From positions 25,253 to 89,252 of the forward strand of contig JAUVNS010000018.1 of the NCBI GenBank assembly GCA_030599585.1: a DNA stretch of 64,000 nt. The letters run 5' to 3'. This document shows positions 18,001 through 36,708 of the stretch, in pieces; within the stretch, counting starts at the first letter, position 1, and each line of letters starts with the position of its first letter. The notes under the pieces are model-generated. The model saw nothing but the letters and a program-made list of their open reading frames with translations. It made no database searches and was not told the DNA's origin. The DNA is from Promethearchaeota archaeon (lineage in GTDB: Archaea; Asgardarchaeota; Lokiarchaeia; Sigyniarchaeales; SOKP01). Position numbers and translations under genes: made by a program.

Positions 18001-21000
18001 TATACGCATAGTTATTCCTAGTAGAATTAACCCTTACAACGACTATAAAAAAAGCGTCTCGTTAAAAACATCTGGCACTTCCGACATGAGACTAAACATA
18101 ACAGGAATACATATAACGCCCGCTGACGGTAAAGTTTATTATAGTTCTGATAAGGAATCTTTCAAACTTAATGGTGGAGATGCAGCCAAAACCGAAGGAA
18201 GTTATTTCTACTACGATAGCGATCAGAACGGGTTCATGGAAACAGTTTACGTCCTATCTCCTGTAAAGGGCGCTGGGGACGACGCTTATTACGAGGTGGT
18301 GGCTATTGGCTTTAATTACGACGGCAAGCACGATTTCGTGCCGTATTCTAAGACTGAAATTGGTTCGCCTATCGAAAATTTAAACGAATTTAAAGATGTT
18401 CTTTCCCACGAAGTCTATCAGACGGGAGGCAATATCTTTGTGTTCTCTAAATTAGCAAGTGATACCGATCGCTTGTTCCCACCAGAAGATAGAGACGGAT
18501 ACGAAGTTAAAGATAACATATTTGAGATAAGAAAATTAATTACGCAGAGCGCCCAAAACGCCAGATTTTCCGAGCTTTTCTACGAAACCCGCCATAGAGA
18601 ATTTAATAGCCTTTGGGAAGTATTTGGTGAAAAATTTGAGCGCGATTTAAGCGAACAAGTAGCGATTTCTATAACTGCTGGAATAGCAGCAGCTATTGCG
18701 AGAGTTTTTACTTCAGATTTGGGAGCTATGGCCGTATATTTTGGCATATACACATCTCTTAGTTTGATTTCTAACGACGTGAAAGCACGCGAGGCGGAGG
18801 CGAAAATCAGATCTCAAACCTTTTACTCAGAAGACGCCGATAGCAACCAACCTAGATTTCTCAATAATAAATATCCTAAAGACGATATTTGGGGCGATAG
18901 CATGCCTGCTGCTCTGAGTGGACACCCTGGAACGTATTACGCTGAAGTTAGAGGAGGTCAAACGGGAAACGAATACTTAGGATACGTTGTTGCTGCACCC
19001 CCAAATGACGATCGGTGTTGGGGAGGTTCTAATAACTTCTTAGATTTTATCGGATCTAATTTCGACCTAGCTTGGACAGATACCTTACCGCAAGACGTTA
19101 ATCCCGACATTATGACTGGGTTAGACTTCGATTATCACAACTTAGACTTTTTAATGGTTGCCAGCGAGCTTTACTCTTACAACGACCAAGAACATTACAC
19201 CTACTTGGAAGGTCAAGAATTAGCCGATACAATGTTGGTATTAGAACCAGTTTACGAGGACTACGATTTTGAACAACTCCTGTCCTACGAGGACTACGAG
19301 CTTGAAGATTTTGTAAAACTTTATCTAACTGGTCCTGAAATTGTCTTAAGAATCATTCAAAACTACGATTCGTACAAGTTACGGCAAAACACTCTCGGCT
19401 ACTTAGAACACGAAATTACCGAAGCAACTAACGGCTCTCTCAATTCAATAAGACCAATAATTTCGGACGAAGCACCTCAATATGTTTTTGCTCAAGAAGA
19501 CGGAACTTCGCCTTTATCACCGCTTTTTAGCCCTCTTATAATAAGTTCCGCGAGATACGATCAACTGAGCGATTCTCGAAAGTTTGGTTATATTTTTGTA
19601 GATATTGCCTCTTCTGAGACGGCCAACACGAAAGGTATCGATTCAACCGACCTTCTAGACGAAGAAAGAGCGTTTTATTCCGCAAAAATACCGTTAGCCG
19701 ACATGTATGGGGCGTTTAATTACCCAATCGAAAGCGTAATATTACACAAAGTGGTAGATAAAGAAATAACTTCCAGAACTCTTAACCCCTCTGATTACGA
19801 AGTTCCCGAAAAAGTGCAAAACCTTTACTTCACCCACCCAATAAAAGACCTTATGGGTGATGAAGACTACCTCGCACACTCAATGACAAAAACCTATAGC
19901 GAAGAAACCGAAGTGCATTACATATGCGAGATCAAATTTGCTAAAATTATACCTGACGACGGCAACCTTTCAGAAGAAAATCAGAGAAATTTATTGGCTC
20001 AAACCACCATGTATCCTATCTTAGATTATTTCGATCAGTATACCTTTGCCGCTACGACAGCTAAAATGATCGGAGAGATTGCTTACACCGAAATTATAAC
20101 GGTTCAATCTACGTCGCGTTCAGCAATTATCGTAGCGATGGCAGGAGCTGCTGCCGCAACTCAAAAAAAGTTATCTGAAGAAGCGGTAGGGATGATCGCT
20201 CAAGTAGGGTCTTCGGTATGGTCCACTGCAGTATCCACTGCTCCATCGTCGATATTTTATAGTACTATAATCCAAATTGCTTCAGGAGCCACGAGAATCG
20301 TTGCCCAGACCGTAGCAGAGATGTTCGAAGAAATCATAGTTGACGGTTTCATCGAGACTTACTTCCAAAACTCTGCTCGAATGTTAGGCTGGACCGAAGG
20401 GGTCGGGAATTTGATTTCCACGCTTATGACCACGATTCGAGAAACCAACATGTTTGGTATTTTCAATCTAGGAGGGCAAGACACCAGCTCGCAAGGAGCC
20501 AACTCGCTCGACGTTAATTTAAACGCCCAGACCGAGCAAGAACTACAACACTCCTCGTTAACCGCAGAGCTATCCCAACTTATCGCGGAACGAGAGAACG
20601 ACCAGTCGTTTACCTTAGAAGAATTTCTAAAAGAGAACAAAGAAGGCGTAAGGTCAATTATGTCCGAATTCGGCTTAGTTCCGAGCAGGCACGAGACCAT
20701 ACTGAAGATGGCAGGCATCATAAGTTCAGGCATTTTTGCCGGGCTTTCAATGTTAGTTCCGGGACTAAGTTTTGCGGGCTTTAGTTTGTACGGGTTTAGT
20801 CCCATGATTAAACATCTAGGAGGAAAAATCGGCGGACAAGGAACTGGGTCTACAACTACGATGCGCGCAGCCCTACAGAACGCTAGAAAGAGCGAGATAT
20901 CGCAAGATATTGATGCGAAAATAATTAAACAGATGGAAGCAAAAAGCGGGCCCATCGACGCAATATTTAGGAGTAAGTCAGATCAAGCGGCAACTGTTAA

Positions 21001-24000
21001 ATCAATAGGGAGTATTAGCCACACGGGAAGAGCGGTCGAATACTTGGTAGACACCAAAGCCAAAGACTTTGACCCAAACACCTACTATGCATTACAATCT
21101 CAAGCCCAAACTTTCTACGAACCATCTTTGATAGTTAAAAACTTAGAAGCTCAAATAGAAACGACTAAATACATAGCAAAAGCAATCGAGTCTTTAGGAC
21201 TAATTAAACAGACTATTTCCGATATAGAAGAAAAGGTAGAGACTTCATCAGAAATTTCAAGCATAAATTTAGATACATCAGCTATAAAGAGTCCAATACC
21301 CATCGAAGACCCAATCACATGGCTTCTAGATGCAGATTACGAAGGGGACACTTACAAAAGAATTCTTTTACCCGGTCTACTTAAGATGACAGTTCCTGAG
21401 TTTAAACTTCTTGTAATGCAAGAATACGACGTTCAATATGCGATAGATATATTCTACGGTCCGATTAGCTACGTGGATCCAACGACTTACGATATCGAAA
21501 TCGGCAGAAAAGTCGGCTCTTTAGATATCTACAGTGATACTACAATGGGAGAGATATTAGAAGAATTAAACATTGATCCAGAGAACCCTCTAGAACATTT
21601 CTTCGTAGTGCCTAATACTGAGAGCACCGAAAATAGGGAAAATCTAGAACAAATGGTAGATTCTCCAGCTTATACATTATTTAAAGATGTTTTAAGCAGG
21701 AATTTTGAAGGTCGTGATAACGTCATTAAAGCGTTCGGAACTCCAGAAAAAGTAGCGTTTCTTTCCAAATTTTACCAAGAAGTTATTGGTTACCTAAAAA
21801 CGGCTATGATGGACAAATTCGGTATATCTGAACAAAATTTATTCAGCGAGTCAAGCGGTTTGATAAGGGGTTATGTAACACAAGATTTGCATGGTGACGA
21901 AGTGAAAGCAATTTGGGAAGAATCAGGAGCAACGACTGACGATAAAGCTCGATTCAACAAAAAAATAAAAGAATATATTGAAGACAGGTTTCTAAGTTAC
22001 ATAAAGGAAGATGGTTTCAAAAAGGGAGATTTTGACGTTTTAATAGAACATAGAATGGATGAGACGATATTATTATTCCTACTAAACGAAATGGATACCG
22101 AGGACACAACTCCTGAAGGTTTATATTCCAAGTTTAAAGAATTCTATTACGAATTCGACTCAATAGTAAGGGATTTGCACTCTGTAACTTACGATCTCAC
22201 TAATCCAGCTGGCTTGAACCTATTTATGCAAAATTTCTTACAAACCTTTTACTCTACTGCGCTAAAAGGTAAACCCTCTCATTATACTAATGCAAAAACC
22301 TTTATTGGTGAAATTCCCGAAACTGGAGCTGTTAGACATGCTATTATCAAGCTTGCAAGAAGGTATGCTACGCACGGATTTCAAGATTTTGACATTGGTC
22401 ACGATATGCAATACACAGCTCTAGGTCCTAAGGAAGATATCAACGATATCATAAGCGATTTAAAAGCGAAAAAAGAGATTGATAACTTTGGAATAGATAT
22501 AACCACCAGTTTTACCCCATTATTAGTAAACCACCAAGACGTTCTTTATACTCTGTCCCCTAATTTTATCTCTAGTTTAGAAGTCAAAAATTCACGAAGA
22601 ATTGATAGTATACATGCCATATACGATATAGGAATAGATGTTTTTAGAACGATCGACATCGATAAATATTTCTCGTTCGGTCTTGATAAAGTTCCTGTTA
22701 GATACGAGGACTTTTATTTACCTGTTTCTTCTGCGATGATACCTTCAATATTTTATAATATTTTTGGTACCCGCGATCCAAATAACATGAGGCATCTCGG
22801 TTTTAATGCTGATGGAACTATCACTAAAACGGGTGATCGAAAAGGAGATAGCGAATCATTATTCTTTCTACAAGTAACTAAAGCTCTTAATAATTTTATT
22901 AGCACACAATTCTCGGGACTAGATAAAAACGCTTTAAAATCAAATCTTAAAGAAGTTTTCGACTTTCTTTCTTTAGAAGAACCTTTAACATCGCCTAGTT
23001 TACCAATTTTCGGAAACTTTTTGGATTTCGCCCTTGATGAGCTTGAAGCGCTCCACAACAAGATTAGAGTGATAGCTTCCAGCGTCTTCGGTTCTAATAA
23101 AGCTTCCAAACTAACAACAGAATTCTACGAGGAAGCGTTATCTAAATTTTCAGATAATCTTGATAAACTAGTTCAAGACTCGGATAATGGAATTCGATTA
23201 ATATGGCGCGAGACCTTACGATGTTTCCTTGATTCTGGAATAATTTTAAGACCCAATATGCTCCCTTCTAGAAGTACAGGTTTTTTCGTAATCGATAAAA
23301 ACGGTAATAGACATTACAAAGGAGATCCAGAACTAGACTACAATTTCTTTATAAATCCCGGAGTAAACTTCGTTTTTGTTCACGATAAAGCTGGGAATAA
23401 CGGTATTATGGCAGTAACTCTCGAAGATAATCTATTGCCCGATGGGATTTTAGAAGGATATCGAGATACTATTACTTCCGAAGTTATTGATGGAGTTTAC
23501 ATTTGCGACGAAGAAGGAACTTTCTTCCTTTCGCGCGTTGGATATGACAATCAAGAATTCTTTATCCGCGACGAGGAATGGTACAAAGCAGGAAACGCGA
23601 TTTCTGGAGCAATTGAAAGCAACCAGCTTACCTATTGGAGGTCCGAAACTAAAATTACCGGAAACAGTATGACTTGCTTTTTACAGAAAACTTTTGCGAC
23701 GGTAAACGCTATAGAAGCATATATTCCTCCAATTAACGCTAAATTGTCTGCGAGTAGTGGAATTTCAACTATTTCTCAAGAAAATAATTTAATTTTCAAC
23801 CCATTAATTTCAGGAAAACTAATTACAACTGAAACTTTTGTTAAGACTTACATAAGTTTATTAGGCTTAAGAAATTTCTTTGGTTCTTCCTCTAGAGGGG
23901 CTTATGCTAATACATTCATAGCCGACAAATTACAACTATACAACTTAAAATTTGATCCGCTTATCGGTGAATCCCCTAACCCATCGACTCTAAGAAGCAA

Positions 24001-25750
24001 AAACGATTTTGAAGGTACGCTTAACGGCTTGTTTAAAACCGAAGCAGACGTCTTAAAATTTCTATTCCTCAAAAAAGATGCCAGCAATAATATAATTCCT
24101 ATGCACGAGAGTGTCCTCACGGTAAAACAATGGTTTTCCTTTATATATGAAAAAATAGAGGCTTACAAAGAAGTTTCAGGAGCGGATAGGATTAACACGC
24201 TCATCGAAGAAGCAAAAACTTCTTTTACAGACAAATATGCTAACAATCCTTTTGACATTAATGCAGGAAAAGAAAAATTATTTTCAACTTCTACGGAGTT
24301 AAAAGCTGGTAAAATAGCTTTTGATACTATTTCTCAGCTCGTAGGTCATTTCACCTTAAGACTACTTTTCATGCGAATGATCAACTTCTATGGAAGTCCC
24401 AAGTCTTACAAGATTGATATAATAAGTAGCCCTAGCAAGGATGATATTGACACATATCTCAGACATTTCTCAATAACGCTTTCAACGCACACAAAGTTCG
24501 ATAAATTTTACAAACTTTCGCTATTCTTTTTAGATTCGTATATAAGCCTACCCGTCACCGAAGATATCAATAAGGAGGATGCAGTTGTGCGTTTTGGATA
24601 TTCTCCTATATCATTTGTGGACGAATCGTTTACCGTCAATAGTTTAAAGGATTTTGATAGAACAATTTCTTCGCAATTTAGAAGTATTTATGAAAATTAC
24701 ATAACAAGTCGATTTCAAGGATCGCTTGCAAACAGAAAGATACGACTATTTGTTGATTCAGGGCAAGAAATATTAAAAGTTTTAAAACCAGTATTAAAGA
24801 TAAAGGTTGACACTTTAGGTTTAACTAAAGCCGAAAAAGTAGAACTTTACAATAGACTTGTTATCGCAGCCGAAAGGGAGATTCTAGATTATACAAGACC
24901 TACAATAACTCATGATTCTGTAGATTATTGGAACATTCGTTACCAGATAGAGAATCTAATTATCGGAGACAAGTTCAAAGAAAATATTAATTTTTACCAA
25001 GTTGAATTTAATGGAAATCCGTTTGTATTAAAGTTATCAAAAGACGATTTCAACGGGAAAAACATAATAATTTTCAAAACTTTCATTAAAAAGTCAAGAG
25101 TTCGTTTTAGTTCTCAAGATTTTGATTACGAAGGATATAATTATAGGATTATCAAAGAGAAAGCACAAATTCTTAGGGAAGCAATCGTAAGCGCTTTAGG
25201 AGGAGAGATCGGGAAAGTGAAGGTTTATCCTCTTTACAGGCCGAATCAAAAAGTAGGCTATCAATTTTTGTTAAAAAATACAATTTTACCAGATGTCATT
25301 CCAACTGAAAGACATACTATTTCTGATAGTACAAAGAAAGACGCCAGATGTTTTGACATCGATTTAGAAGATCCCAACCTTCAATATAAATTAGAGCACA
25401 TTGCAAAACTTTCGCTTAGTTATATAAAATCTTCTCGTAGTGCCTCTTTCACAAGAGATTTTATGTTTTTAATTCTAAAAGATGATTTAAAAATGAATGG
25501 AGAAAGTAAACCAGCTTACGAATACAATCGCATGATTGGAGCTTTTGATCGACATCAATTTTATAGTCCAGACGAGATTCTCTCCACTGGTTCAAAGACA
25601 AAATTTTTCGCACCTTTAGAAATTACTGGTTTCGAATCTGGAATGACAATTAATCCCGAAATAATTAAACGATGGAATAAAGCAAACAGATTTTTAACTC
25701 TTCCGACAGCTGTGGTGTTCCGCGATTGGCAAAACTGGTGGTCTCGATAA
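2..25750 (+). CDS. Giant (>8,571 aa) putative extracellular/polymorphic-toxin-like protein, 5'-partial
   Basis: Frame is open from nt 2 (ACC TCA GCA GTA...) to TAA at 25748-25750, so the true start lies upstream of the window. D/E/N/Y-rich beta-type body with many N-x-S/T sequons; DxDxDG-like loops at 17015-18334; hydrophobic G/A-rich segments at ~18655-18772, ~20125-20290 and ~20700-20810; more basic C-terminal ~1,600 aa. aa ~6160-6930 are homologous to the ORF at 32644-36708. Confidence 0.9.
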   Translation, partial: TSAVGFNFNNAVFNDNYDYLVWFEGYTNGFTSELWVDGTNVQSFGSSPGSEFDGKFFTDINTIKVWLASDGGFNPEDKEVFLDFLKVLWVNQPVNISVKNANSINVTQSYSRTHTTSTPIDSGFYNDPYFGKNSLKFSIKNSITTPKFGRENGSVYADSILSDISLDFTVYPNSSYINFPLEHINVEGNNETKYNAEVLKDYDIYSANRFRNSAMDEIQIPLMTPIELDFGSADLDVLKDMDLEIALSLNFNRYYTASDFIWSLRFRLMYYNYSSGVWEDFKGMLRAENKGVERSVWGSTSDNFVDYLQNPQSNNFIPVSNENDITIKNPILIKSVSNNTISNGKMKLALMSYVIPSNFSIESGDNYFTYERADPQVPIEINQQVDVLECLFIGESVEIMYPDSAIKTNLPLDQNFRANLTLIDNLGEITAVIGKYIDRDSVAYEYPIFSYWITSSNELAFNSPMKYLFSSLEVEYIPEIELVFTNDKYYLPNSSIINHQNFTQPFLVTNLKDDSTVYGTYIHPDVDVGYYLQVDQYGTFVVNSSNFDGIPRGSVRFAKSNDTYFYQFSLSDELIYKYNLLNNASDLIGGTLQLELNAGFSDVVYSELSQVTCSDYKLVVDLHQLDTTTNTLKKIGQITTSLDQNLLYYHYYKIDLDLEETNYETNGRSILAETIARGSHYDLYVTVNSTIYNCFVDGNLFKGLYAHELLSADLQIDAQDSELRYNGEQVDQTFVEIPQESVILNKLDTATYAFDSNSLKYGFEFTVDELRTESAVINEANYEFSFESLALTLSGSYSDYSGILFADITYKAFKWDIDYISTLEPITFTFANDYTENITKFLELIVQYNAIPGYDMEKISETSGRLVLSEEAKDASLLKVYMYNFIEDKWDHVNFVTYDDYSGTNTFSYVVDRNFITFENYFNDTISGQFEAKIIFTIEEDVGDCFVSKISFDVNSLNANIYYSTPSTSHKVNPQVEFDVDLTEYYADSSIYLEEITLDLNFDGEIELDDAFIFSQYALLEENYNFYLRNEYLEYELFELEDNKLTVSRSDLDRLLFYDVENEKYVVRGALEYDWNCIIEMNLGSNSKLEILAALNLINYDLSVSYTSYEVRRISASEISVPFKLAAIYAPNYINTTDGITNLEDDEEIDVGIFRGFLRNVDTRQRLMLRQKLYYNFTDSQISNYNIVLDQEYTDCVLRFVSPYGYLHSPVDYLINQTYFEFISDSEVTSIEFYYHNGVNYAKKGDMEKDSIDATKFTFLWDDAQGDTGAITGDSVKIMFNLTDILGNNGQYEYSLLADFYPPQVSISLGDGAQNFESDLIATPDTAITFTSNEEDGVVSEHYSWAEDFESYDSGYMDHSYYPDDYNSTWTMDSLNMNNAFPTATISELWSGWTLDYDSQVTTSSFSNGDLSSNLIEATELYSPDQPSDFNVTGAGLTQYGNLETIDANYSIIDSADVATSYGDTQYIDSVTYTTGEYSLGALSDTETDDSNYYRSVSLNTIKLNLFFDPVVGGRDFYMDIHCEAWYGFSDPVTNYIQVNGQTVLTSDANDVIDQDNFLIEGVNSIRAYTIDRTGATYHALYYFKLVEKITEKVYVEAAPEYLDSVTYDNGAYQSGSYSDTQTDSRGSNYKSWGSVGIDMNLLFDPSLGGRDFNVSLDCLGTVAYNSLSYGFYVNNILQASATTSEYITFDGMVYSDVNSLELRIGDGSGNEYINLYYLKIEEIIEEVTVQVEIQGPEDTSVDFLKYSHKSNVSQTIDLDIWNWNTEQWYEIESVNNYASFDNDSFSLGQSSPYVNATNDVRIRYQGYWNQSSTYQIQIDRLALEYSYLPQGSPYADVSKTITDSFLDRYDSGFSNYQKLYEITIDFDYIFTKDSTLYDDFAQFTLDGSDFALSKDGYSHHFSDYFEYDSASRSGFDLMFNVSNGLLEIENMEYNFRFKSLDTSDHILLQQDFTVEFTDENELEVFKNFQDANFVIYNSYSFTTNSDGFTYYNTNGRTDKLEIIYKIKADDQWYTSIYSTSLAESGAKKFNVSQFMVDNLLIQFQDFEVEYLLTGNNSDLTINYLTLNCSTAAKYIQEYYRITYNVMGQISNWISFNSSAYTKLDDFGELPANFSVEYKVIDFAGNVGTATIYNTNYKNVMYSLEKSISLSDNEIDLNNPNNREISFENTGQFNNVNLLDVYINGFRYGTASLDTGYYKLNFGTGNSKETLLAYSDSLMTDYIYSNVNPLNHVSWEVREDDYFAVVKHVLVDGEIVIINPLSYNRTTQLDINHLYDRGFGLENLLRIRRAYYINSSNDAVCTMSFGIDYWIEKSGEISFPETSKLHLLYANPSEVKNGLIYFEHDVSLIGDQLSLTNADGFFVNFTMPSVYYDHTTIEKLTINFNDLMGNSFSKVYFDLDLREYFLENVKDQYEVDIFGLGKMMTIPLYIDMNDIRLSNPNKPFTLSFLESISFEIKDSPRWPGSFIQDIGNYTIMNLPYQRISISDIRLYNSISDSLDANNDGFVSSTVKFVAPDYYNCFGETEFNIKRLNIEFTDLQIFAYRELVEAGSVVDVEHSDLIEINYHWGDTISQVLLNDIYTLPVELINGSSGDTLSIGGAYWITKYEMDSLSGYIKYYYSRFEVPKGLGEYNVSFSSRGTPLFNITFLSAPSFTLNVTQESLSSTTPIYLENDQFEVEYGDPIILSGAILDNDEYIIEDEVYSYKYQEALDGETSHTLKLVSPFGDSDFIDTNNFSIYYINDKLEVLPLYTTLHNKRFLNDTILAYGKDPVISYVDNAFILNIYWEKSSTSFIRYDTNLLISYKVLIGQPLSPISFTSSDSYGNNKQQNLIEIPFAKYDIITRSWKTEGDFVNRFPINKLLLSEDVESTGATLEGLTFYEGEEITTGVIGLENIYVNKSYSSEFRLLDSSEYDWSIDSTGKLVVSGLNYTTTGDVFDVNYYACYPTEIPHSLTKDVSNVDYVKVRNGTGHEYLFVENIDYKLSEDGYSIFFVDLYNTILKSNNFTIYDTFEIGYHSSLAKKIDLSQNILLLLQDSEGNNIPIDGIPIDSLGMFDYEETLKIDSPFSIPVGGGKKIVHMELAYLPLNIYNKSSDILKNIDYLDGDIGNIYAVKESNAWAKPITVITIPEKVKLSLVENPLENIVINQKFYEEREYYFNLNPVEALEKGEEYTKVMIDALVKEDYEFTFRLSDLLEDKPINNSIVWLQVGFVPKTKTKFVNERATIDDLGISPYFESLGTEEITFLGPGTGTEKMFGKPLTYELDWYNTNFSSYGPHIWSFAKTNEFGEAKFDVSFDQDYLSDFSDVFGSIEGFDSIDDVVLYIRAFSSYFNWSEFAINTPNQYLCSESGNIFDGSTALDNYDFTNLALQDSTYVEGLITLHKKDIALGINDYFSYNLPDAGVGGSYDPLTIHLYVAEATPIPSMIGTTVESLTNIYTSSQLEPTAHNILNDDYSFYANIEFYTPSGSLAETMFMEINPEFNSGVITIDNETVIQILSKLGPGISTIKIQVAESEYYKPSPSITVPLEVRPSNWIKYGQKNTIIDLIDPYINAWGNAFNGEGFMPFESNYPHLIGTIWIEPNFEGTGEEKEQSIQDYVEIGLDCITESSVPIDEVPEGVSFKVDPINTHMAIIKESFPLRENIMLRPGNREGVMMFDVGLGPEDAFIMGLECELNLTFNINYNNFDIYEDDRQVDIYLLDLRLEENPSSSSNKTLWSVYNDEFNSDGTGFGLSKDNSIQTETGVVSLGGTENEVDYGLEVEFTYNPEESIYTIDSESELFDLFKLDDITPLEVSWLNGSEEITLTKDTDWQIGSSLSEIEFLDNSLPDNYSDFIVVYKFDFDFGANNFANITLGPRGGNNANESWILFSLPDGFLPPSEDSLSFMYTRFNQTFVGTGSATQYTLEYGVQGATEWDDDLFIIYNEGELGLLSRDAPSGRPRVEINKPLDEVFNVKYGIRSEYLLGYGFQKVGEVYSDSVRLMYNNESSSPIIDSAGPKNTLSLSDPSLYISLDDSSKETILELYNVPLLYSPEVNFTFALDPIVMDLVDTFTTEIVNSLEITFYYVASGGYGSYYTDTILLPLNYTELSLDLQSGSYFLNYNKDLQGIYEAFGTGNLDVYVAISQVGNGSNYIPYVILEEFDYLCDEHLLEMYDRMPLDGDGDLDVKAVINTPHYVQLFSKPFVDDIYGGSPFDLLDNSQITVGLDDMVYSSLVSLQTDGVGGYAFEYLGSQETLPINAENYYQIPNLGLFTDAYNLDEVVYQDGYVDLFYGNGIEVSGAYDFDLAINMEYDSLTVDDYEATISGGVVTSWEDYYNITDQFLTTDEIAVSDTVLYHQLFDLTSDIIELDDLNEILGNITGAYFGVKLPDDVSISYLRTIGSPYTYDLSVQGFPIGSYIDGTYCKVKTSGTTQDFDLREDSEIMNRTTYYSLEFASNGSKYIVFTKSINDVSNFAVNDKIMVDYWAYYTFVEGFDYEIVEDPLDPYTSVIDWAYQISAIDSYTMHPDFIINSSFSVDFSALEWEEIDNNYIHDGSDEFTFQPHIDTNTTVLYSGDVTEDFSVLNIVPDNQFNETDLFTNIYVDIWDGENEDTIFTYEYLYQPLGHGYIIQDVNVSFYFTINYTAIEEFFQQYYPDHVLLDDSYTYIQLGYESTQLRYTMSNTPFNYDYVGSEHTTYHIVLTIGEDAPIYSYQSAFNDYILKIENNFVYFNDSRFVDDGYIANNTNIKLEYKYKLQPGLLERKHFLSVIYPWSNAFNSIVDDAISGDSDITYREKYRKLSGSSIISPFEYSLSINDTYRLYLSYRLNQREYFEEKFEIDYRSGELDFYYLSNAFDNYVSEYSKEEVVVYYFDENNQMQFLDRASFIVDNVTHKITLKADGNPIVSINPIVEFYVGFSPAVSDERFNAYEYTYNPSLGMNDTLELTYWNVTHGERFDVIPNLNAYNYINEPRTTFTNFVSHATQVAAFLEEEETLVFDLAGEIGWYNDALLDGIQNGEYLSIYFHASFENYYCLEGISVELNDSTGVIPGFTQFITIEELVMWDFDIKIDLPFEPNNDLQTIAITPIFADSDEYSEDNILGIPHFELLEWDEDLVEGDIDRYIPIQLETELITDSPSLEIAYLFNENLQYLALPEGVEFNWSVDDDFLGEGHYTLNIPEIFVNPDDTSQNATFEDGDVILFRYNIPAQKLVKIGIKEIYFNKKPYNYDQLSVLSEFVLVNANETDSDSYNYDEFTAPYNYNASLRLTPFDDEFTSSYKSVAIDLNISSLEAFAIDGFVDFSHILFSAPNPNYELTVSQVVIVQELEGLSDFVEFFDSRVWQFTEFEKVTSSPVPEKDNYSLELPNDPIYYRDADEGKWLEFIKIYDENYNYYSAGISGDEYQLLWSPATKNFTWNPSFDRFQEYWGMQIELPQLIQSNTTLYFEYCANVSWSNEIDLDYENIHFDSFELIYNYDYLLTPRFEDWYGELIDNSNDGFDYEIEQFYSETFVVYTETNEYSHAFETEYDFEDDFLNLTLYSIVGLYANFTEKIIDDDNVNYDVVFDIPAKNITITDLISGDGLLNEFDAITVVLNFTHGLDSTKTKLKFSDSFNQTYLDDMDATFYDFVSGSFEYATKSGDYLFVERAETIASDSTSFVSIDYTRNSDLSINLNLDKYNTSALFDNFELYLDPYNVIYEADADMDGRRDFKHEIDIDKNGRVDVIKFGVESETDSNEIIWHTAINDFLGDETEYDLKSRPRETTKWFDLDDAMFTTSTSLFTIFFAELDYWGKKYVEQTYATDQSVESSFYSIMVDDDYDGTANTQYTYEKSNFVQYTYVINNETTILAAKPQNMFTYIYASMAEWIGTLVTGGRVDPIFNEQLTPEMIESGSYPGDFHWLAPDIRETLTQTYKKYSIVSTRLYIENSVSEKITVNNWENGTLLETRIYQDLFKDDSIDLGIDLSQTVTNLETGQQQDIPLDFIPAIQTEQNSYAIWDDDSNVPGKFESLTSVDLESSSSDSSNLFERDIRIVIPSRINPYNDYKKSVSLKTSGTSDMRLNITGIHITPADGKVYYSSDKESFKLNGGDAAKTEGSYFYYDSDQNGFMETVYVLSPVKGAGDDAYYEVVAIGFNYDGKHDFVPYSKTEIGSPIENLNEFKDVLSHEVYQTGGNIFVFSKLASDTDRLFPPEDRDGYEVKDNIFEIRKLITQSAQNARFSELFYETRHREFNSLWEVFGEKFERDLSEQVAISITAGIAAAIARVFTSDLGAMAVYFGIYTSLSLISNDVKAREAEAKIRSQTFYSEDADSNQPRFLNNKYPKDDIWGDSMPAALSGHPGTYYAEVRGGQTGNEYLGYVVAAPPNDDRCWGGSNNFLDFIGSNFDLAWTDTLPQDVNPDIMTGLDFDYHNLDFLMVASELYSYNDQEHYTYLEGQELADTMLVLEPVYEDYDFEQLLSYEDYELEDFVKLYLTGPEIVLRIIQNYDSYKLRQNTLGYLEHEITEATNGSLNSIRPIISDEAPQYVFAQEDGTSPLSPLFSPLIISSARYDQLSDSRKFGYIFVDIASSETANTKGIDSTDLLDEERAFYSAKIPLADMYGAFNYPIESVILHKVVDKEITSRTLNPSDYEVPEKVQNLYFTHPIKDLMGDEDYLAHSMTKTYSEETEVHYICEIKFAKIIPDDGNLSEENQRNLLAQTTMYPILDYFDQYTFAATTAKMIGEIAYTEIITVQSTSRSAIIVAMAGAAAATQKKLSEEAVGMIAQVGSSVWSTAVSTAPSSIFYSTIIQIASGATRIVAQTVAEMFEEIIVDGFIETYFQNSARMLGWTEGVGNLISTLMTTIRETNMFGIFNLGGQDTSSQGANSLDVNLNAQTEQELQHSSLTAELSQLIAERENDQSFTLEEFLKENKEGVRSIMSEFGLVPSRHETILKMAGIISSGIFAGLSMLVPGLSFAGFSLYGFSPMIKHLGGKIGGQGTGSTTTMRAALQNARKSEISQDIDAKIIKQMEAKSGPIDAIFRSKSDQAATVKSIGSISHTGRAVEYLVDTKAKDFDPNTYYALQSQAQTFYEPSLIVKNLEAQIETTKYIAKAIESLGLIKQTISDIEEKVETSSEISSINLDTSAIKSPIPIEDPITWLLDADYEGDTYKRILLPGLLKMTVPEFKLLVMQEYDVQYAIDIFYGPISYVDPTTYDIEIGRKVGSLDIYSDTTMGEILEELNIDPENPLEHFFVVPNTESTENRENLEQMVDSPAYTLFKDVLSRNFEGRDNVIKAFGTPEKVAFLSKFYQEVIGYLKTAMMDKFGISEQNLFSESSGLIRGYVTQDLHGDEVKAIWEESGATTDDKARFNKKIKEYIEDRFLSYIKEDGFKKGDFDVLIEHRMDETILLFLLNEMDTEDTTPEGLYSKFKEFYYEFDSIVRDLHSVTYDLTNPAGLNLFMQNFLQTFYSTALKGKPSHYTNAKTFIGEIPETGAVRHAIIKLARRYATHGFQDFDIGHDMQYTALGPKEDINDIISDLKAKKEIDNFGIDITTSFTPLLVNHQDVLYTLSPNFISSLEVKNSRRIDSIHAIYDIGIDVFRTIDIDKYFSFGLDKVPVRYEDFYLPVSSAMIPSIFYNIFGTRDPNNMRHLGFNADGTITKTGDRKGDSESLFFLQVTKALNNFISTQFSGLDKNALKSNLKEVFDFLSLEEPLTSPSLPIFGNFLDFALDELEALHNKIRVIASSVFGSNKASKLTTEFYEEALSKFSDNLDKLVQDSDNGIRLIWRETLRCFLDSGIILRPNMLPSRSTGFFVIDKNGNRHYKGDPELDYNFFINPGVNFVFVHDKAGNNGIMAVTLEDNLLPDGILEGYRDTITSEVIDGVYICDEEGTFFLSRVGYDNQEFFIRDEEWYKAGNAISGAIESNQLTYWRSETKITGNSMTCFLQKTFATVNAIEAYIPPINAKLSASSGISTISQENNLIFNPLISGKLITTETFVKTYISLLGLRNFFGSSSRGAYANTFIADKLQLYNLKFDPLIGESPNPSTLRSKNDFEGTLNGLFKTEADVLKFLFLKKDASNNIIPMHESVLTVKQWFSFIYEKIEAYKEVSGADRINTLIEEAKTSFTDKYANNPFDINAGKEKLFSTSTELKAGKIAFDTISQLVGHFTLRLLFMRMINFYGSPKSYKIDIISSPSKDDIDTYLRHFSITLSTHTKFDKFYKLSLFFLDSYISLPVTEDINKEDAVVRFGYSPISFVDESFTVNSLKDFDRTISSQFRSIYENYITSRFQGSLANRKIRLFVDSGQEILKVLKPVLKIKVDTLGLTKAEKVELYNRLVIAAEREILDYTRPTITHDSVDYWNIRYQIENLIIGDKFKENINFYQVEFNGNPFVLKLSKDDFNGKNIIIFKTFIKKSRVRFSSQDFDYEGYNYRIIKEKAQILREAIVSALGGEIGKVKVYPLYRPNQKVGYQFLLKNTILPDVIPTERHTISDSTKKDARCFDIDLEDPNLQYKLEHIAKLSLSYIKSSRSASFTRDFMFLILKDDLKMNGESKPAYEYNRMIGAFDRHQFYSPDEILSTGSKTKFFAPLEITGFESGMTINPEIIKRWNKANRFLTLPTAVVFRDWQNWWSR
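4400..5170 (+). repeat. Internal ~135-aa tandem domain duplication within the giant protein
   Basis: YIDSVTYTTGEYSLGALSDTETD...NLFFDPVVGGRDFYMDIHC...LYYFKL versus YLDSVTYDNGAYQSGSYSDTQTD...NLLFDPSLGGRDFNVSLDC...LYYLKI. Confidence 0.8.
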
Positions 25751-25775: not shown

Positions 25776-25828
25776 ATTTATATTTCATTTGTATTTATTG
25801 TAAATAACCCTTTCGTCATTATAGAAGT

Positions 25829-26902
25829 TTAAGAACAATCTAACTTGTTGTTTTCCAGTGCTAAGACTTTTAGCGATTTCATTTCTTTTATAGATTTCGG
25901 TAATCTAGTTAGATGGTTATTATTTAATGCTAGAACTTCTAAGTTCTTTAACTTTTTTATTGATTCAGGAATACATGTAAGCTTGTTTATGCTTAGCCCT
26001 AGTCGCTTAAGGTTAAATAATTCCGTTACGATCTCAGGGAAGATTTTAAAATTGTTGACGCCTAAATAAAGTAATTCGAGAGATTTTAAAGAAGATATTT
26101 CGCGAGGAAGAGTTTCCAACTGGTTACCGCTTAGGTTTAACTCTCGAAGGTTTTTTAGCTGCCCAATCTCTTTTGGGACATACAAAAATACATTCTCGTC
26201 TAAATAGAGCTTCCTTAAAGATGTTAATCTTGTTATTTCTAAAGGAAAACGTGTTAAATGGCAATGCCTTAACTCCAATCCAATTAACTTATTTTTTTCA
26301 AATTCAATCGCAAATTGCGGATTGCCGTATTGGTTATCGAACCATAATTCTTCTTCGATTTTTACTTCAGCTTTGGAAAGTATTTGCAATTTATTTAAAA
26401 TTAAGACTTCCTCATTTTCTAAAAATGTTTCAATTAACTTTTCTTTTACATATTTTCTTACATAACCATTTCCAATTAGATATCGGACAATAATTGGATG
26501 ACCGCTTTCAAACCTTTTTACGATTTCTTCTTCAAATACTGCTTTTGCTACTTGATCTCCAACGTCAGTTAAAGCCTTTAACATAGGAAACGCTAAAGTT
26601 CTATGCAATAGTCGCGTATCGTAATTAAACTCGTACCACGCTTGAAGGTTAGAACAGTGTGCCCAAAACTCTTCTTCTGGTAGTATTTCAAATTCTTCTA
26701 AAGCTCTTTCTTCTAACGATTGATCCAATAGTCTTTCTGCCTCGTCAATAGACATAATATCTTCAAAATTTTCAATATTATTCTCGTCTATATAAATTAA
26801 TAGAAATTTACAGTGTCTAAACAGTTTGTCTTTTATATAAATATTGGTCTTACCGTTTTCTAGTCGTAATTTTAAAAATTCATTTATTTGAAATTCTTTC
26901 AT
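25829..26902 (-). CDS. 'HCSNLQAW'-domain protein with C-terminal leucine-rich repeats
   Basis: N-terminal LKLRLENGKTNIYI...CKFLL...EEEFWAHCSNLQAW...RLLHRTLAFPMLKAL domain; about six 23-aa LRRs (LxxLxLxxNxLxxLPxxIxxL). Confidence 0.9.
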   Translation of the reverse strand: MKEFQINEFLKLRLENGKTNIYIKDKLFRHCKFLLIYIDENNIENFEDIMSIDEAERLLDQSLEERALEEFEILPEEEFWAHCSNLQAWYEFNYDTRLLHRTLAFPMLKALTDVGDQVAKAVFEEEIVKRFESGHPIIVRYLIGNGYVRKYVKEKLIETFLENEEVLILNKLQILSKAEVKIEEELWFDNQYGNPQFAIEFEKNKLIGLELRHCHLTRFPLEITRLTSLRKLYLDENVFLYVPKEIGQLKNLRELNLSGNQLETLPREISSLKSLELLYLGVNNFKIFPEIVTELFNLKRLGLSINKLTCIPESIKKLKNLEVLALNNNHLTRLPKSIKEMKSLKVLALENNKLDCS

Positions 26903-29083: not shown

Positions 29084-29085
29084 CT

Positions 29086-30540: not shown

Positions 30541-30787
30541 TTTTTATCACTTCAGCTTTTAAGAACTTAATGAATTTATTCTACAATATATTTGTTTTTA
30601 ACAATTATAATTTTGAGCAGTTAATATAAATGTATAGTGGATGATAATTTATTCTTCTTTTTCATTTATATCTTTTTTTAGATACTTAATTTTTAAAACA
30701 ATCTTAGTCAACACCTAATTAAAAATAAGAATACTACATCTTTTTGTAAGAACGGTTGAAAGGATTTTATAGAAGAAAAGATTTAGT

Positions 30788-31810: not shown

Positions 31811-32611
31811 TCACTTATAATAACCAGATATCTTAAACAAAAAACTGCTTTCCCCTAATCTGTGCTTATATACTTTAAAAATTTCATGGACTTTATTTTT
31901 AAAATACTCATTCTTATTATAATATAATTTATCAATGAGAATAGTCGTCCAATAACTAATATCAAGGTATTTCTTATTAAATGAATCTCCAAACAAGACC
32001 AATAGATCGAATAACCTTATTTTTGGGTGTTCTATGAGAAAAAAAATATCATCATCACAAAGATCGTATTTCTCTCTATCATATGTTAAAATTTCATCCA
32101 GAACGGATTCATTAATTTCTTTATCTAATAAATTTTCTTTAATGGTTTCAAGCAACAATGAAATTTGTTCATAATTTAAAAACGAAAAATATTGGTTAAA
32201 CACCAAAAAAATAATAACTGAAATGTTTTGAGTCTCTTCAACCTTTTTAAAAATCTCTTCTCTAAATACCTTTCTTGCCGTTTTATCCCCCAAAAGCATT
32301 AAATCCTTCAGTAAAGGAAAGGCTAGAGAGTAATGAAGTAACCGAGAATCATATCCACTTTCGACCCACGCTTGAAGATTCGAACAATGCCCCCAAAACT
32401 CATCACGGGCGGAGATATAAAAACGAGAATCTTGCACAATTTCCCCTAAACTCTCGATATAGTCAAGATTATCTAAGGTTTTGATCTGATCTGAAGATAA
32501 ATTTATAACTAACTTCTTGCACTGTGAAAAAAGAACATTGTTCAAGTAAATATTAGTTCTTTTGTTTTCTAACCGTAAAGAAATTAATTTATTTATCTTA
32601 TATTCATCCAT
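31811..32611 (-). CDS. 'HCSNLQAW'-domain protein with helical tail; candidate immunity protein
   Basis: ISLRLENKRTNIYL...CKKLV...DEFWGHCSNLQAW...RLLHYSLAFPLLKDL, paralogous to 25829-26902; begins 32 nt downstream of the GIY-YIG ORF on the same strand. Confidence 0.85.
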   Translation of the reverse strand: MDEYKINKLISLRLENKRTNIYLNNVLFSQCKKLVINLSSDQIKTLDNLDYIESLGEIVQDSRFYISARDEFWGHCSNLQAWVESGYDSRLLHYSLAFPLLKDLMLLGDKTARKVFREEIFKKVEETQNISVIIFLVFNQYFSFLNYEQISLLLETIKENLLDKEINESVLDEILTYDREKYDLCDDDIFFLIEHPKIRLFDLLVLFGDSFNKKYLDISYWTTILIDKLYYNKNEYFKNKVHEIFKVYKHRLGESSFLFKISGYYK

Positions 32612-32643
32612 TTTTCTTAAAAAAATAATAAAAAAAAGATTAT

Positions 32644-35600
32644 TTAAAGATTTAGATTGTTTGATAATGCTAAAGCTCGCAATCTATTAAAATTATACCC
32701 TAAAGTACGAAGTAAACATTTATCTGAAAGCTTCTTGATTGTCGACTCAGAATAACCTAAACCTCCCAATGCAACTAACAAAGAATATGCATTATATTCA
32801 TATGGAGAACTTCTTATTAATGATAATGCCAATGTTAAATAATAATGCTTATCTGGTCGGGAAGAGACCAATGCCTTAAAAGTCTCACGATCTTCTTCGA
32901 ACCTAGTTGGCAGAATATTTTCAATAATTAAATCCTTTAATTCAGTAAAAGTTAATCCTCTAAATCTCGTCTTAATAACACCACTATAATCCCTTCTAAG
33001 GGATAAATCACTATACTCCTCTCCAAATCCTAGCTTAATGAGGAAGTCATAGCAAGTGATAGAATACCCTTCTTTTCTAAGAATGTCAACAGCTCTTCCC
33101 CAGTAAATAGAATCAGGATAATATCTATCATTAAGTTCATTGAGAGAAATACCTTGTCTAACATTGAATTTTGTCAAAGTTTTAACATCTGTAAACCCCG
33201 GAAGAATTGGAAGCAGATCTCGATTGTGGACTCTATGGTTAATACTAGATATAAATCTTTCAACTCGTGCTTTAATAACCAAACCTCTATAATCTCCAAT
33301 GTGAGCTAATGGGATATCAATTTCAAATTCTTCTTCTACTTTCTCCTTTAATAGTTGAGAGACTAATTTTTTATTTATTCCAGACAAACCTGGATCGATC
33401 TTTTTTGCTGAAAGGTCTAAAATTCTCACTATCTCGTATAATTGGTATCCTTTCTCAAAGTAGTTATAGATTAGCTCTTTTTGATAACCTCTTAGTATTT
33501 TCTTAAATGTCTTCTGTTCTGGGTATTGTTCTTCTAAGTTTCGATCCAGTAAAGTGCGTGAAAATTTTGACTTGAACGATTCTTGAACTAACTCTATGTA
33601 TAATTGCTTTCCAAAGGCTAAACAAGCAATCTTTTTAAAATTATTATGTAAGTCTATAAATGGAATTATGGTACCTGATTTAGATCCAATCCTTCCTCCC
33701 ATATGGATGTTGGCACCAAATTCTTGGTATTGCGAATGAAACAAACCTATCCAAGCTATCTCAGCAAAATCAGCTAATTCACGAGTTCTTGCTTCAGCTA
33801 TTCTAAGTGCCTCTTTACGTTCCACACTATCAACAATTCTATTAATCTCGTTCATGTCCCCTTGAAAAGTAATAACTTGCAGTATCTCAAATCTAAACAC
33901 CTTTTTAGCTTCTTCAATGTTCTCAGTATATTCACTAATTAGCTGCTCAATATAAGAACGTGGATTCGTAAAAGCCCGTTCTAAGTGTTCCTCGTATCTT
34001 AGTATTGGAGAAACTCTTCCAGTCTCCCCAACATACATCAGATCTGGAAAAGGAATGAAATCTGAACCTTGTGTATCTGTAAGTTTCTTATTGTACTTAT
34101 TCCAATAGATTCTATAAATATATCTTGTGCCTGCGGAATAATCTTCGTGCAAATTCCGAATGGCTTTCATCTTCTTTAGCAATATTGTATTTTCTAAATT
34201 ATGATCAATTATATGCCCACAATGCTTACATTTGTAACGAATGGTATCTTTGTCATTAATCAATCGAACTAAAGACTTAGTCTTACCTTCAAACTCGAAA
34301 TTGTGTCTTACGAATTGTTTATGTTCTTTGTTATCATATCTACAAGCTCCTATCTCAGCATAGTAATGGCTTACTCTCTTTGATGGTTGTTTTAAAAGAC
34401 TTGACGGTTTTGTACGAACCATTCCAAACATCGACAACCCGGAAAATGTTAATCCACAGAAGAAACCGAGCGGACCTAAAGAAAGCGTAAGGAAAGTCGT
34501 CATAGTTCCAAAAGTTGCTATCCCAACGCCAATCCCAAGATTTTTAACGATAAATTCTTTAGTGTTTTGGATACCATCTCCAACTTTTCCAGCAATTCCA
34601 GAGATAGCAACTTTAACGGGGTTAAATATTTTGCTAAACACTTTTTTAACCGAAATATCTTCAGTGAGACAATACGTTGCAATCGTTGTAAATGCTAGAG
34701 CGCCAAAAGGTCCGAGGAGGAACGAGGCAGCAAAACCTGTTGCCAACGAGACAAAACTAAGAATTTTGTTTGCCCCTCTAAGGATCGCCATTTGGCTTTC
34801 TTTAGCCGTTTGCTGAGAGTCGAAATTGCTAGAGTAATCGTTAAATTCGTTAATAAATTCTTGAATCGTCGGTCTCTTATCTTTAGAGAAGTAATTCGTA
34901 TCGAGAATTTCTGATAACGACTGCTGTTGAGTCTGTTCAGAGCTAAACATTGTCGAAAGCGGTCCGCTGATCGCCTCTCTACCGCTCTCTGCGATGGAAC
35001 TAAGGACCATCTGCATGATAGCGTCTCCGCCTGCTCGTCGCACTAATCCCGAGACCGTGCTTTCGATCCAAGGGTCTAAAAGGAGTTCTTGTCCCATTTC
35101 CTTCGTCACGGCTCCGATAACGGTAGCAACGCTAAAACTCTTAGCCGCACCTAAAAACGTCTCCAATAACCTTCCAAGCACTTTGCTCGATACTTCGCTC
35201 GCTGAGTCTTTAAGAGAATTTACGATGGATCCCATACCAGCAGAAAAGCCCATAGTGAGCGCGGTAGAAATCGCGGTAACTATTGCCGTGTAAATTAATT
35301 CGTGGAATCCCATCTGAGTTTGTGTTGCAAGGTTAAATTGGTAGTTGTATTCGAGGATGGCAGCTTCGATGGCTTGAGCAGTCGCAATTTTATTTACTTG
35401 CTCTGAAGTGAGGTCTCGAACGTCCGAGATCGAGCGGTATTTCTCCACTTTTATCTCGAAAAGTATTTTTGGTTGAGAAACTGAATAAGTTAATTTATCT
35501 TCGTCTAATTCTTCTTCTTTTGTAGCGTACGAATTTAGTATGGTAGAAAGCGTTTGAACCGAACCAATAGTAATAATTCCAGTGCTCAAATCGACATCAA

Positions 35601-36708
35601 ATTCTCCATTTTCTAAAGTGACCAGATGGGAGTTAGCGGTTTGCGTACCAGCCCCGAATGTATTGGGCGTCACGCTCCAAACCACGTAGGCGTCGATCGA
35701 TACGATATCCGCTTGGAGGTTTGATTCCGTGTCAAATAGCTGGATTTCGATGGAAGTAATTTCTTCGGGATTTTCAATTTCCATTATCTTGTAAATAGAA
35801 CCGTATTGGTCCGCTGCCGAGGAGTCGTCCGATACAAAAACGGGATACTCGGTGTAAAATTCAGGAGCGGGGATTCCGCCCATGGAATCGATAAAGCTAT
35901 ACCTTGGAGCAAACCTATCGCGTTCGGAGTCGTAGTCTATTGTAGGGATGATGGTGTCGAGGTATGTGTCTCTGTTATCTGCCGTATCTTCTTGGATCTG
36001 GTTCTCTATGTAATACACGGAACTCTTTGCGTGGTTAAATTCGGGAATTCCAATATTGTCCACAAGCGGGTTAATTGCTCCAGTCGATTGGAGGTATCCT
36101 ACAACGAGATAGTCGTCAAAATCGGAGTATCCCGCCAAGTTCCGAGTGGATAGCCAATAATCTAATTTTGGATACGAGTAAGATGTTGTAAGCGAGGACG
36201 CTTTAGATTCTTCGAAATTAAACTCTCGAACGATAATATCGGCGCTATAGGAAAATTCTTTTGTGTCTCCATACACGGGGGCGTACACTCCACCAAACGA
36301 ACCAAATATAGTTATTGGCATAACATCTCCGTACATGTCGTCGAACCAGAACTTATCTCCTAACACTTTCTCGCCAGAAGAACCGTCTAAGCGGAAAGTT
36401 CGGTGAGCAAAGTAATTCTCTTGTTCTAGAATTTTTGCTGTTTGGAAAAGAATTGACACTCCAAGATATCCTAACATAAAACCGAATGGTCCTTTATCTA
36501 AGAGAGCAGAGCCCAACAATCCTGCTGTTGTCGCAAGGAATTGTTGGAATACGTCTAACACTAGAGTACCTAAATCGGTCTGCTCTTCGAACTGATTTGT
36601 CGCCATCTCTTCTGCCATCTCGATCAGATCGCTGCTTTCTTGCGTAAACACCATTTTACTTATGTCAAAAAGCACGTCGCTAAAGGTAGGCTCGTTAAAC
36701 GTTCCCAC
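32644..36708 (-). CDS. Orphan C-terminal cassette of a giant protein: conserved hydrophobic trunk plus GIY-YIG nuclease tip
   Basis: First ~760 aa are colinear with giant aa ~6160-6930. Then CKHC, GIY-YIG motifs YIY-x-YVGET...R-YEEH...E-IAWI...GANIHMGG (~33690-34125), and helical repeats. Weak GTG start with an in-frame stop 11 codons upstream. Confidence 0.85.
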   Translation of the reverse strand: MGTFNEPTFSDVLFDISKMVFTQESSDLIEMAEEMATNQFEEQTDLGTLVLDVFQQFLATTAGLLGSALLDKGPFGFMLGYLGVSILFQTAKILEQENYFAHRTFRLDGSSGEKVLGDKFWFDDMYGDVMPITIFGSFGGVYAPVYGDTKEFSYSADIIVREFNFEESKASSLTTSYSYPKLDYWLSTRNLAGYSDFDDYLVVGYLQSTGAINPLVDNIGIPEFNHAKSSVYYIENQIQEDTADNRDTYLDTIIPTIDYDSERDRFAPRYSFIDSMGGIPAPEFYTEYPVFVSDDSSAADQYGSIYKIMEIENPEEITSIEIQLFDTESNLQADIVSIDAYVVWSVTPNTFGAGTQTANSHLVTLENGEFDVDLSTGIITIGSVQTLSTILNSYATKEEELDEDKLTYSVSQPKILFEIKVEKYRSISDVRDLTSEQVNKIATAQAIEAAILEYNYQFNLATQTQMGFHELIYTAIVTAISTALTMGFSAGMGSIVNSLKDSASEVSSKVLGRLLETFLGAAKSFSVATVIGAVTKEMGQELLLDPWIESTVSGLVRRAGGDAIMQMVLSSIAESGREAISGPLSTMFSSEQTQQQSLSEILDTNYFSKDKRPTIQEFINEFNDYSSNFDSQQTAKESQMAILRGANKILSFVSLATGFAASFLLGPFGALAFTTIATYCLTEDISVKKVFSKIFNPVKVAISGIAGKVGDGIQNTKEFIVKNLGIGVGIATFGTMTTFLTLSLGPLGFFCGLTFSGLSMFGMVRTKPSSLLKQPSKRVSHYYAEIGACRYDNKEHKQFVRHNFEFEGKTKSLVRLINDKDTIRYKCKHCGHIIDHNLENTILLKKMKAIRNLHEDYSAGTRYIYRIYWNKYNKKLTDTQGSDFIPFPDLMYVGETGRVSPILRYEEHLERAFTNPRSYIEQLISEYTENIEEAKKVFRFEILQVITFQGDMNEINRIVDSVERKEALRIAEARTRELADFAEIAWIGLFHSQYQEFGANIHMGGRIGSKSGTIIPFIDLHNNFKKIACLAFGKQLYIELVQESFKSKFSRTLLDRNLEEQYPEQKTFKKILRGYQKELIYNYFEKGYQLYEIVRILDLSAKKIDPGLSGINKKLVSQLLKEKVEEEFEIDIPLAHIGDYRGLVIKARVERFISSINHRVHNRDLLPILPGFTDVKTLTKFNVRQGISLNELNDRYYPDSIYWGRAVDILRKEGYSITCYDFLIKLGFGEEYSDLSLRRDYSGVIKTRFRGLTFTELKDLIIENILPTRFEEDRETFKALVSSRPDKHYYLTLALSLIRSSPYEYNAYSLLVALGGLGYSESTIKKLSDKCLLRTLGYNFNRLRALALSNNLNL

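Follow-up and report, generated by a model that had tools for sequence, protein, structure and literature searches.

Giant membrane-anchored proteins with exchanged C-terminal tips: a candidate contact-dependent toxin-immunity system of Promethearchaeia

What is the function of a protein of more than 10,000 amino acids whose C-terminal part recurs, with a different ending, in a second gene nearby? This question was raised by 64,000 nucleotides of a Promethearchaeota archaeon (GCA_030599585.1, contig JAUVNS010000018.1; G000:C23:25253-89252), which are referred to as the window. The window carries two large open reading frames (ORFs), the giant G and the shorter S. The original prediction described a delivery trunk common to both, with toxin tips that had been swapped. 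Both ORFs were found in place, and this toxin-delivery interpretation was supported as far as computation goes. We regard G as probably part of a polymorphic toxin-immunity system in Promethearchaeia, the Loki-type Asgard archaea; the system would depend on cell contact, use an undescribed trunk and reside on an integrative plasmid-like element. Contigs C24, C47 and others named below belong to the same genome, and L-numbers denote homologous loci. The features are listed in Table 1.

Table 1. Features of the giant gene, the truncated cassette and their neighbours, in window coordinates
Feature	Position	Strand	Description
G	2..25750	+	last 8,582 codons of a 13,902-aa ORF, contig C23:9294-51002
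G, parts left of the window			basic cytoplasmic N-terminus; ~7 transmembrane helices, aa 647-885; LamG-like domain, aa 1820-1965
G stalk, distal part	2..18472	+	acidic, sequon-bearing, extracellular; no Pfam match; shares mosaic blocks with the C24 and C47 stalks
G trunk	18473..20914	+	conserved, ~800 aa; putative translocation module
G tip	20915..25750	+	~1,610 aa; member of the divergent long-tip family; 0 sequons
Candidate partner of long tips	25829..26902	-	357 aa; HCSNLQAW-motif N-terminal domain and leucine-rich repeats; convergent with G
Candidate S immunity gene	31811..32611	-	266 aa; 33 nt past the S stop, same strand; HCSNLQAW-motif N-terminal domain, no leucine-rich repeats
S	32644..36708	-	1,354 aa; 5'-truncated trunk-plus-tip cassette, probably derived from a C47-type giant
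S tip, GIY-YIG nuclease domain	33694..34122	-	aa ~863-1005; helical region after it
S trunk	34369..36737	-	71% aa and 78% nt identity to the C47 giant; dN/dS ~0.2
Truncated ORF	36734..37840	+	368 aa; small-GTPase-like fragment without its N-terminus, and a C-terminal domain; apparently 5'-truncated

G was open from the left edge of the window to its stop codon, and its start was located 16 kb further left. The original prediction of a giant protein of more than 0.9 MDa was right about the giant, but the size was understated, since the full length of 13,902 amino acids (aa) corresponds to about 1.5 MDa by length. It also did not include the N-terminal membrane anchor, the mobile-element context or the true parent of S. 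Two further giants were found in this genome, one of 13,847 aa (C24) and one of 14,550 aa (C47). The three proteins shared a common plan: a basic N-terminus is followed by about seven to eight strong transmembrane helices, then by an acidic stalk (10,600-12,800 aa), and the chain ends with the trunk and the tip. The giants are three to four times as long as CdiA. The stalk of G showed long blocks with 65-79% identity to the C24 stalk, from which its central segment differed, and blocks with 62-72% identity to the C47 stalk at other positions. The stalks of the giants are mosaics, and G is an intact member. The LamG-like domain was the sole Pfam match in the whole of G; haemagglutinin, two-partner secretion (TPS), Rhs/YD, LXG, MuF, MafB and Hint domains were absent from it, and the originally predicted lack of Rhs, haemagglutinin, LXG and MuF signatures held in every model scan of G. 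The Pfam scan of S gave no Rhs/YD, LXG, MuF, MafB or Hint match, and NCBIfam gave no match for S or for either end of G.

The homology of the two trunks, which had been claimed by eye, was confirmed. BLASTP aligned S aa 71-579 with G window-aa 6228-6804 over about 600 columns (21% identity, E=4e-6). Most of the blocks matched by eye were inside this alignment, and the first block was in the MAFFT alignment. The Smith-Waterman score of the two trunks was 186, compared to a shuffle mean of 48 and a maximum of 77. The C-termini beyond the trunk were unrelated, as predicted, with a tip score of 48 against a shuffle mean of 50. An alignment of 24 trunk homologues retained eight invariant columns. 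The trunk model (predicted local distance difference test, pLDDT, 62) showed a helical hairpin, an alpha/beta part and a beta-sandwich, followed by long Ala/Gly-rich helices. Foldseek with this model found nothing, the best VIA match (Z 7.2) being to generic helical bundles. The PDB sequence profile search with the trunk alignment also gave nothing, and neither PHROGs nor NCBIfam returned a match for trunk or tips. The hydrophobic segments of the trunk were mostly weaker than the N-terminal anchors, as would be expected of segments that insert later. The trunk may represent a new module for protein translocation across archaeal membranes. The trunk-based delivery part would be a Loki-specific apparatus without a described relative. 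The proposal of an undescribed class agreed with this outcome, in that structure prediction of the trunk led to no solved relative and no paper on this giant and tip system was found in the literature, where most subscription papers were outside the reach of the search.

S was compared with the other giants of the genome. It matched the 14,550-aa C47 giant over 768 aa at the identities given in Table 1. This homology reached window position 36737, beyond the apparent GTG start of S, so S was taken as a decapitated cassette. S appears to be a 5'-truncated cassette of another giant of this genome, of the C47 type. S had been considered as a cognate orphan of the adjacent G, and this was rejected because 21% identity is too distant and the parent type is C47. 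The predicted orphan tips with adjacent small genes were borne out at the level of the family, where truncated cassettes and tip-specific neighbours occur, but not for S and G as a pair. G and S are convergent and two JAB/MPN genes are located between them, which meant that this was not a tandem orphan array. The predicted GIY-YIG domain of the S tip was recovered. All motif positions (Tyr, Tyr-Gly, Arg, Glu and Asn) were there, and ESM Atlas gave GIY-YIG clusters at 0.91; Pfam did not detect the domain. The start of the 368-aa ORF, whose relatives are mostly 587-629 aa long, marks the breakpoint that cuts S, and this ORF is outside the system. The junction at 36734-36737 may be a deletion or a misassembly.

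Tip exchange was then visible across the family. Clustering of the last 280 aa of 115 distinct tips gave 49 C-terminal clusters, which is an upper bound because some of the tips included were cut by contig ends. In two copies within one genome, identity fell from about 90% to about 15-20% at the trunk end. Between S and the C47 giant it fell from about 78% to about 15% at the same point. In the trunk tree, S, C47, L059 and L058 formed one well-supported clade with four different tips. Tip lengths ranged over 400-1,850 aa, and the tip of G belonged to a divergent long-tip family of 1,570-1,850 aa. Two further loci showed features at this junction or beyond it. The closest relative of G (L041:13513-13532) was split into two ORFs exactly between trunk and tip and was also 5'-truncated, and a 20,619-aa member (L119:3-9305, G252:C13) had a 1,846-aa tip that ended in a domain unmatched by the long-tip profile.

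The trunk homologues carried variable and mostly enzyme-type C-termini, as had been predicted. LAGLIDADG domains with library support were found in five tips, some of the LAGLIDADG-type tips having DNA-binding helices. The toxin deaminase PF14424 (BURPS668_1122) was seen in two tips with E-values of 1e-6 and 1e-5, just below the cut-off. Conserved motifs indicated HNH-like domains in 19 tips, including that of the C24 giant, and PD-(D/E)XK-like domains in several families, including that of the C47 giant. RNase-like domains were likewise supported by motifs. PDB sequence profiles with the HNH-like and RNase-like alignments gave nothing. An S24-like peptidase domain was noted in some tips and a ubiquitin-like domain in one (P0003, P0098 and one A4 member); these are possible processing modules.

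The gene following the tip was examined in the same loci. It tracked the tip in 36 concordant pairs in 46 loci, compared to a mean of 7.4 and a maximum of 18 after shuffling, although kin loci are not independent and relatedness inflates this count. The pairing was also observed across distant trunks or opposite sides of the tree (L003/L072, L059/L048/L051 and L049/L076). The downstream gene goes with the tip and not with the trunk, and tips swap at the trunk end together with the next gene. The C47-type tip had a partner family of 257-399 aa, and the RNase-like tips one of 156-180 aa. The partner of HNH-like tips was a zinc-finger protein of 113-186 aa or a 286-aa leucine-rich repeat (LRR) protein. 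Extra copies of partner genes were found in arrays at L110, L051 and L047; the L110 array had four zinc-finger partner genes and an orphan HNH fragment beside one giant. The original prediction had proposed a profile search with tabulated C-termini and neighbours, and this yielded the tip clusters and concordant pairs above and the distribution given below.

For L068, a related locus outside the window with deep alignments, complex prediction was performed with the HNH-like tip and its zinc-finger neighbour. The score was 0.79, and the best control gave 0.29. Three runs agreed in at least 30% of contacts, and the pLDDT of the partner was at least 72. The mark used for complex prediction was reached by 58 of 80 solved pairs and by 2 of 110 mismatched pairs. 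The predicted interface included residues around the invariant His. This model supports binding between the L068 tip and its neighbour.

The genes next to G and S shared the HCSNLQAW-motif domain. This family was the first neighbour in 11 of 14 long-tip loci, nine of them convergent. The link between long tips and the family appears to be real, and the 357-aa and 266-aa genes are candidate immunity genes of G and S, respectively. Separately, the 196-aa gene located after the L053 long tip had an orphan copy (87%) at C34:238431-239024, at the same chromosomal site and with the toxin fragment absent.

The membrane side of the tips was addressed using glycosylation sequons (N-x-S/T), with D-x-S/T, Q-x-S/T and N-x-x-S/T as control motifs. 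The genome encodes an STT3/AglB oligosaccharyltransferase. The tips contained 6 sequons, whereas 626 were expected (ratio 0.01), and the control motifs gave ratios of 0.93-1.00. Stalks had a sequon ratio of 1.18 and other ectodomains one of 1.37, compared to 0.93 for soluble proteins and 0.84 for partner genes. Zero sequons were found in 49 of 53 tips, compared to 1 of 109 cytoplasmic proteins of the genome. With one tip per family, 3 sequons were observed against 101 expected. Eight tips fetched later had 0 against 89.5, and the G tip had none where 12.3 were expected. The depletion began in the trunk and was complete past it. A domain in the cytoplasm of the producer never meets AglB, and from the sequon-free tips we infer export. 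The tips would have to remain free of glycans, the simplest reason being a second membrane crossing. The original prediction had named tips facing the cytoplasm of the producer, as in a receptor-like protein, as the observation that would count against it, and the avoidance of sequons went the other way. In apicomplexan parasites, sequons have likewise been proposed to be selected against (Bushkin 2010, cited in PMC7826898). In archaeal genomes, avoidance of sequons can be used as a simple and general test for effectors that are exported and then translocated. The apicomplexan selection is reportedly linked to membrane threading.

What was read from sequence is the single-chain architecture, the exchange of tips, their pairing with partner genes, the avoidance of sequons and the mobile context. 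The tip exchange, tip content, partner pairing, L068 complex, sequon avoidance and mobile context together point to a polymorphic toxin-immunity system. Such a system might work as follows. The chain would be threaded out via Sec past the oligosaccharyltransferase and would stay tethered by its N-terminus. The long stalk would reach and recognise a neighbouring cell. The moderately hydrophobic hairpins of the trunk would then insert into the membrane of the neighbour and pass the unglycosylated tip into its cytoplasm. There, a DNase, RNase or deaminase tip would stop growth, and the cognate downstream protein would give carrier cells immunity. S would be the leftover 3' end of another giant gene and could act as a donor in recombination and, possibly, as a toxin-antitoxin-like module.

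Several observations weigh against this reading. Co-occurrence of tip and neighbour indicates co-inheritance and does not establish neutralisation. The neighbour of G is convergent and not co-transcribed with it, and its family has 11 members in this genome. The HNH, PD-(D/E)XK and RNase calls rest on motifs, with no library matches. The G tip had no recognisable catalytic domain in Pfam, PHROGs, NCBIfam, Atlas or fold searches. Its model (pLDDT 64, predicted TM-score 0.47) matched nothing in PDB, VIA or Atlas, where a known fold is still possible because the models are large and multi-domain, and its homologue search returned only two proteins. The L048 long tip, which is similar to that of G, carries an extra RNase-like domain, so long tips may be scaffolds. 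GIY-YIG, HNH, LAGLIDADG and PD-(D/E)XK are also homing-endonuclease types or folds. No autoprocessing protease was conserved among the tips, the S24-like domain being restricted to a few.

The distribution and context of the giants bear on the purpose of such a system. The trunk profile matched 56 of 134 genomes of the window's family (Promethearchaeia) and, elsewhere in the phylum, 4 of 265 genomes. No match was found in the single-contig genomes of a neighbouring family. Among 1.84 billion proteins the profile gave 295 clusters at 50% identity, and the named relatives were Promethearchaeota or Promethearchaeia metagenome-assembled genomes. Lone matches labelled Chlamydiota, Actinomycetes and Thorarchaeota were on short contigs and were not counted as a wider range. 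Intact trunk-bearing frames were about 11,000 to 20,619 aa long, and the trunk also occurred on truncated cassettes. Many matches were short ORFs whose starts varied in position, within the trunk or shortly before it, and which were preceded by no giant sequence. A 600-aa membrane gene was conserved upstream of intact giants, often accompanied by a block with a primase-like gene and ParB; such upstream genes were seen in several genomes. No ParA match was found among the upstream genes scanned. A paralogous block on C32 included a tyrosine integrase (PF00589). The C24 giant was directly followed by tRNA-His and was the sole copy checked with an adjoining tRNA; the window itself contained no tRNA. 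The giants are read as residing on integrative plasmid-like elements, which are cut by contig ends.

Further observations were made on these elements. The 600-aa membrane genes at C47:72481-74280 and C23:7211-9016 were 92% identical although the giants downstream of them are very distant, which suggests recombination between elements. The end of C51 and the start of C23 (L107, L001) shared an exact 141-nt overlap, and C51, with NYN and HNH_5 genes, probably continues the element leftwards. The end of C32 and the start of C30 may represent a further integrase-bearing element. In two genomes, one chromosomal site was occupied by different giants (L122 and L124), and at L122 this site also had a second HNH-plus-zinc-finger pair. 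In L044:172-8375, the N-terminal part of a giant (-) was back to back with a trunk-plus-tip cassette (+).

Element genes of this kind also allow the giant to be mainly a mating or transfer bridge, with the tip serving the element, either by killing or arresting contacts that do not acquire it or by inter-element exclusion, and not strain competition. We consider this quite unlikely. The primase-like, ParB and integrase genes fit a bridge, as do the membrane block of 6-15 helices, the basic cytoplasmic N-terminus and the conserved 600-aa membrane partner, and no other transfer machinery was recognised among the upstream genes scanned. However, no relaxase or coupling ATPase was identified on these contig-cut elements, where no systematic search for them was made, and the diversity of tips and the immunity-like arrays are what inter-strain conflict predicts. 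A bridge would share the steps of toxin delivery, and only its purpose would differ. A wider proposal, also unlikely, is that the giant is the whole cell-to-cell machine of the element. In this case, a 1.5-MDa tether with a new translocase fold would bridge Asgard cells, open or fuse the membrane of the neighbour, poison non-carriers and spread the element. The long tips would then represent a novel class of toxins, with immunity provided by LRR proteins.

The homing-endonuclease folds among the tips, together with the LamG-like domain and adhesin-like composition of the stalk, could instead indicate that the giant is an adhesin or another surface protein and that its 3' end collects homing endonucleases and other selfish domains by passive fusion. 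This would not explain the 100-fold purge of sequons. Tip-specific partner genes, toxin deaminase and RNase-like domains would be unexpected, and no Hint or intein domain was found in S or the roughly 98 tips scanned with Pfam. Such passive fusion seems very improbable. A receptor-like suicide function in abortive infection, with the tip held in the cytoplasm of the producer and inhibited by its neighbour until a virus binds the stalk, deserves just as little credence: the trunk segments are hydrophobic enough for insertion and the lysine and arginine content of the tips is cytoplasm-like, but most of these segments are weaker than the N-terminal anchors, and sequon-free tips, beside cytoplasmic proteins that do not avoid sequons, make sense only if tips pass the glycosylation machinery of the outer face. 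A variant in which the tip is exported and, in response to a signal, returns into the cell that made it may be compatible with the sequon test.

The toxin-immunity system favoured here was compared with known systems. Like CdiA/CdiI, Rhs, MafB and LXG systems, it has a constant delivery part, a recombined C-terminal putative toxin and an adjacent candidate immunity gene (PMC3482391). It also shares with bacterial polymorphic toxins the standalone cassettes, the polyimmunity-type loci and the same toxin classes; those classified by Zhang et al. 2012 include HNH, the restriction endonuclease fold, URI/GIY-YIG and the BURPS668_1122 deaminase, and LRR proteins are listed there as immunity proteins (PMC3482391). 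The same work called polymorphic toxin systems rare in archaea. In contrast to the bacterial proteins, the giants carry no haemagglutinin, Rhs/YD, LXG, MuF or Hint domains and form one chain that is anchored by its own multi-pass N-terminus and has a sequon-rich stalk. Their tips are 400-1,850 aa long, compared to 100-300 aa, and their cassettes are scattered in the chromosome, whereas bacterial ones form arrays behind the gene. The filamentous haemagglutinin repeats and TPS domain of CdiA/CdiB (type V contact-dependent inhibition) were absent from G, where the whole-protein Pfam scan gave LamG only. The genomic features of the polymorphic toxin class appear to be present, and the defining domains of each named family are absent.

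Giant genes on Asgard integrative elements have been described before. The aloposons of Heimdallarchaeum carry the Otus and Ephialtes giants (Wu et al. 2022, PMC8813620). Like the present elements, they are integrated into Asgard genomes and carry giant genes preceded by a partition-type gene, and truncated pieces of giants occur at other places in the genome. That paper describes tandem genes of 3,000-6,000 aa, a MinD/ParA ATPase in an upstream four-gene block and tRNA sites. In contrast, a single gene of 11,000-20,600 aa was found here; the upstream genes scanned included ParB and a primase-like gene, and one of the copies checked had a neighbouring tRNA. The aloposon giants were given no function and variable tips were not mentioned in the accessible parts (PMC8813620). 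Otus and Ephialtes were set apart on the basis of their description. VARTIG, an archaeal surface protein of Thermococcales, has a C-terminus that is exchanged by recombination, and the genes downstream of it vary; it was likened to polymorphic toxins (Makarova et al. 2021, PMC8416519). However, its variable part is an immunoglobulin domain and not an enzyme, and it is far smaller and from a different lineage. The preprint of West-Roberts et al. (bioRxiv 10.1101/2023.11.21.568195), as far as its accessible text goes, reported membrane-associated giants of Omnitrophota and other groups that were implicated in attack. These carry cell-wall hydrolases along the chain, unlike the predicted tip-borne enzymes here. 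That text also stated that most archaeal proteins above 10,000 aa are from Asgard archaea, and it gave the Asgard giants no function.

The remaining features of the window were considered. Two tandem JAB/MPN-domain genes with coiled-coil tails (27704-30540; 459 and 484 aa) and, upstream of them on the same strand, a 173-aa zinc-ribbon gene (30788-31309) are located between G and S. They were rejected as parts of the system because they were not seen beside the listed homologues. A 1,651-aa protein with an N-terminal hydrophobic segment and no Pfam match (39422-44377) had paralogous pieces on C52, C31, C20 and C39. Short dispersed repeats at 37890-38175 and 44430-44840, with 74-93% identity on many contigs, are possibly similar to miniature inverted-repeat transposable elements. 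The promoter scan gave a result at chance level.

The tip-partner pairs are a source of new nucleases and inhibitors, including LRR and zinc-finger ones, and they are small enough for immediate testing in laboratory hosts. If the toxin-immunity reading is true, it would provide a function for a large share of the unexplained Asgard proteins above 10,000 aa. It would also indicate contact-dependent antagonism, none of which was described there in the literature found, in a lineage close to eukaryotes.

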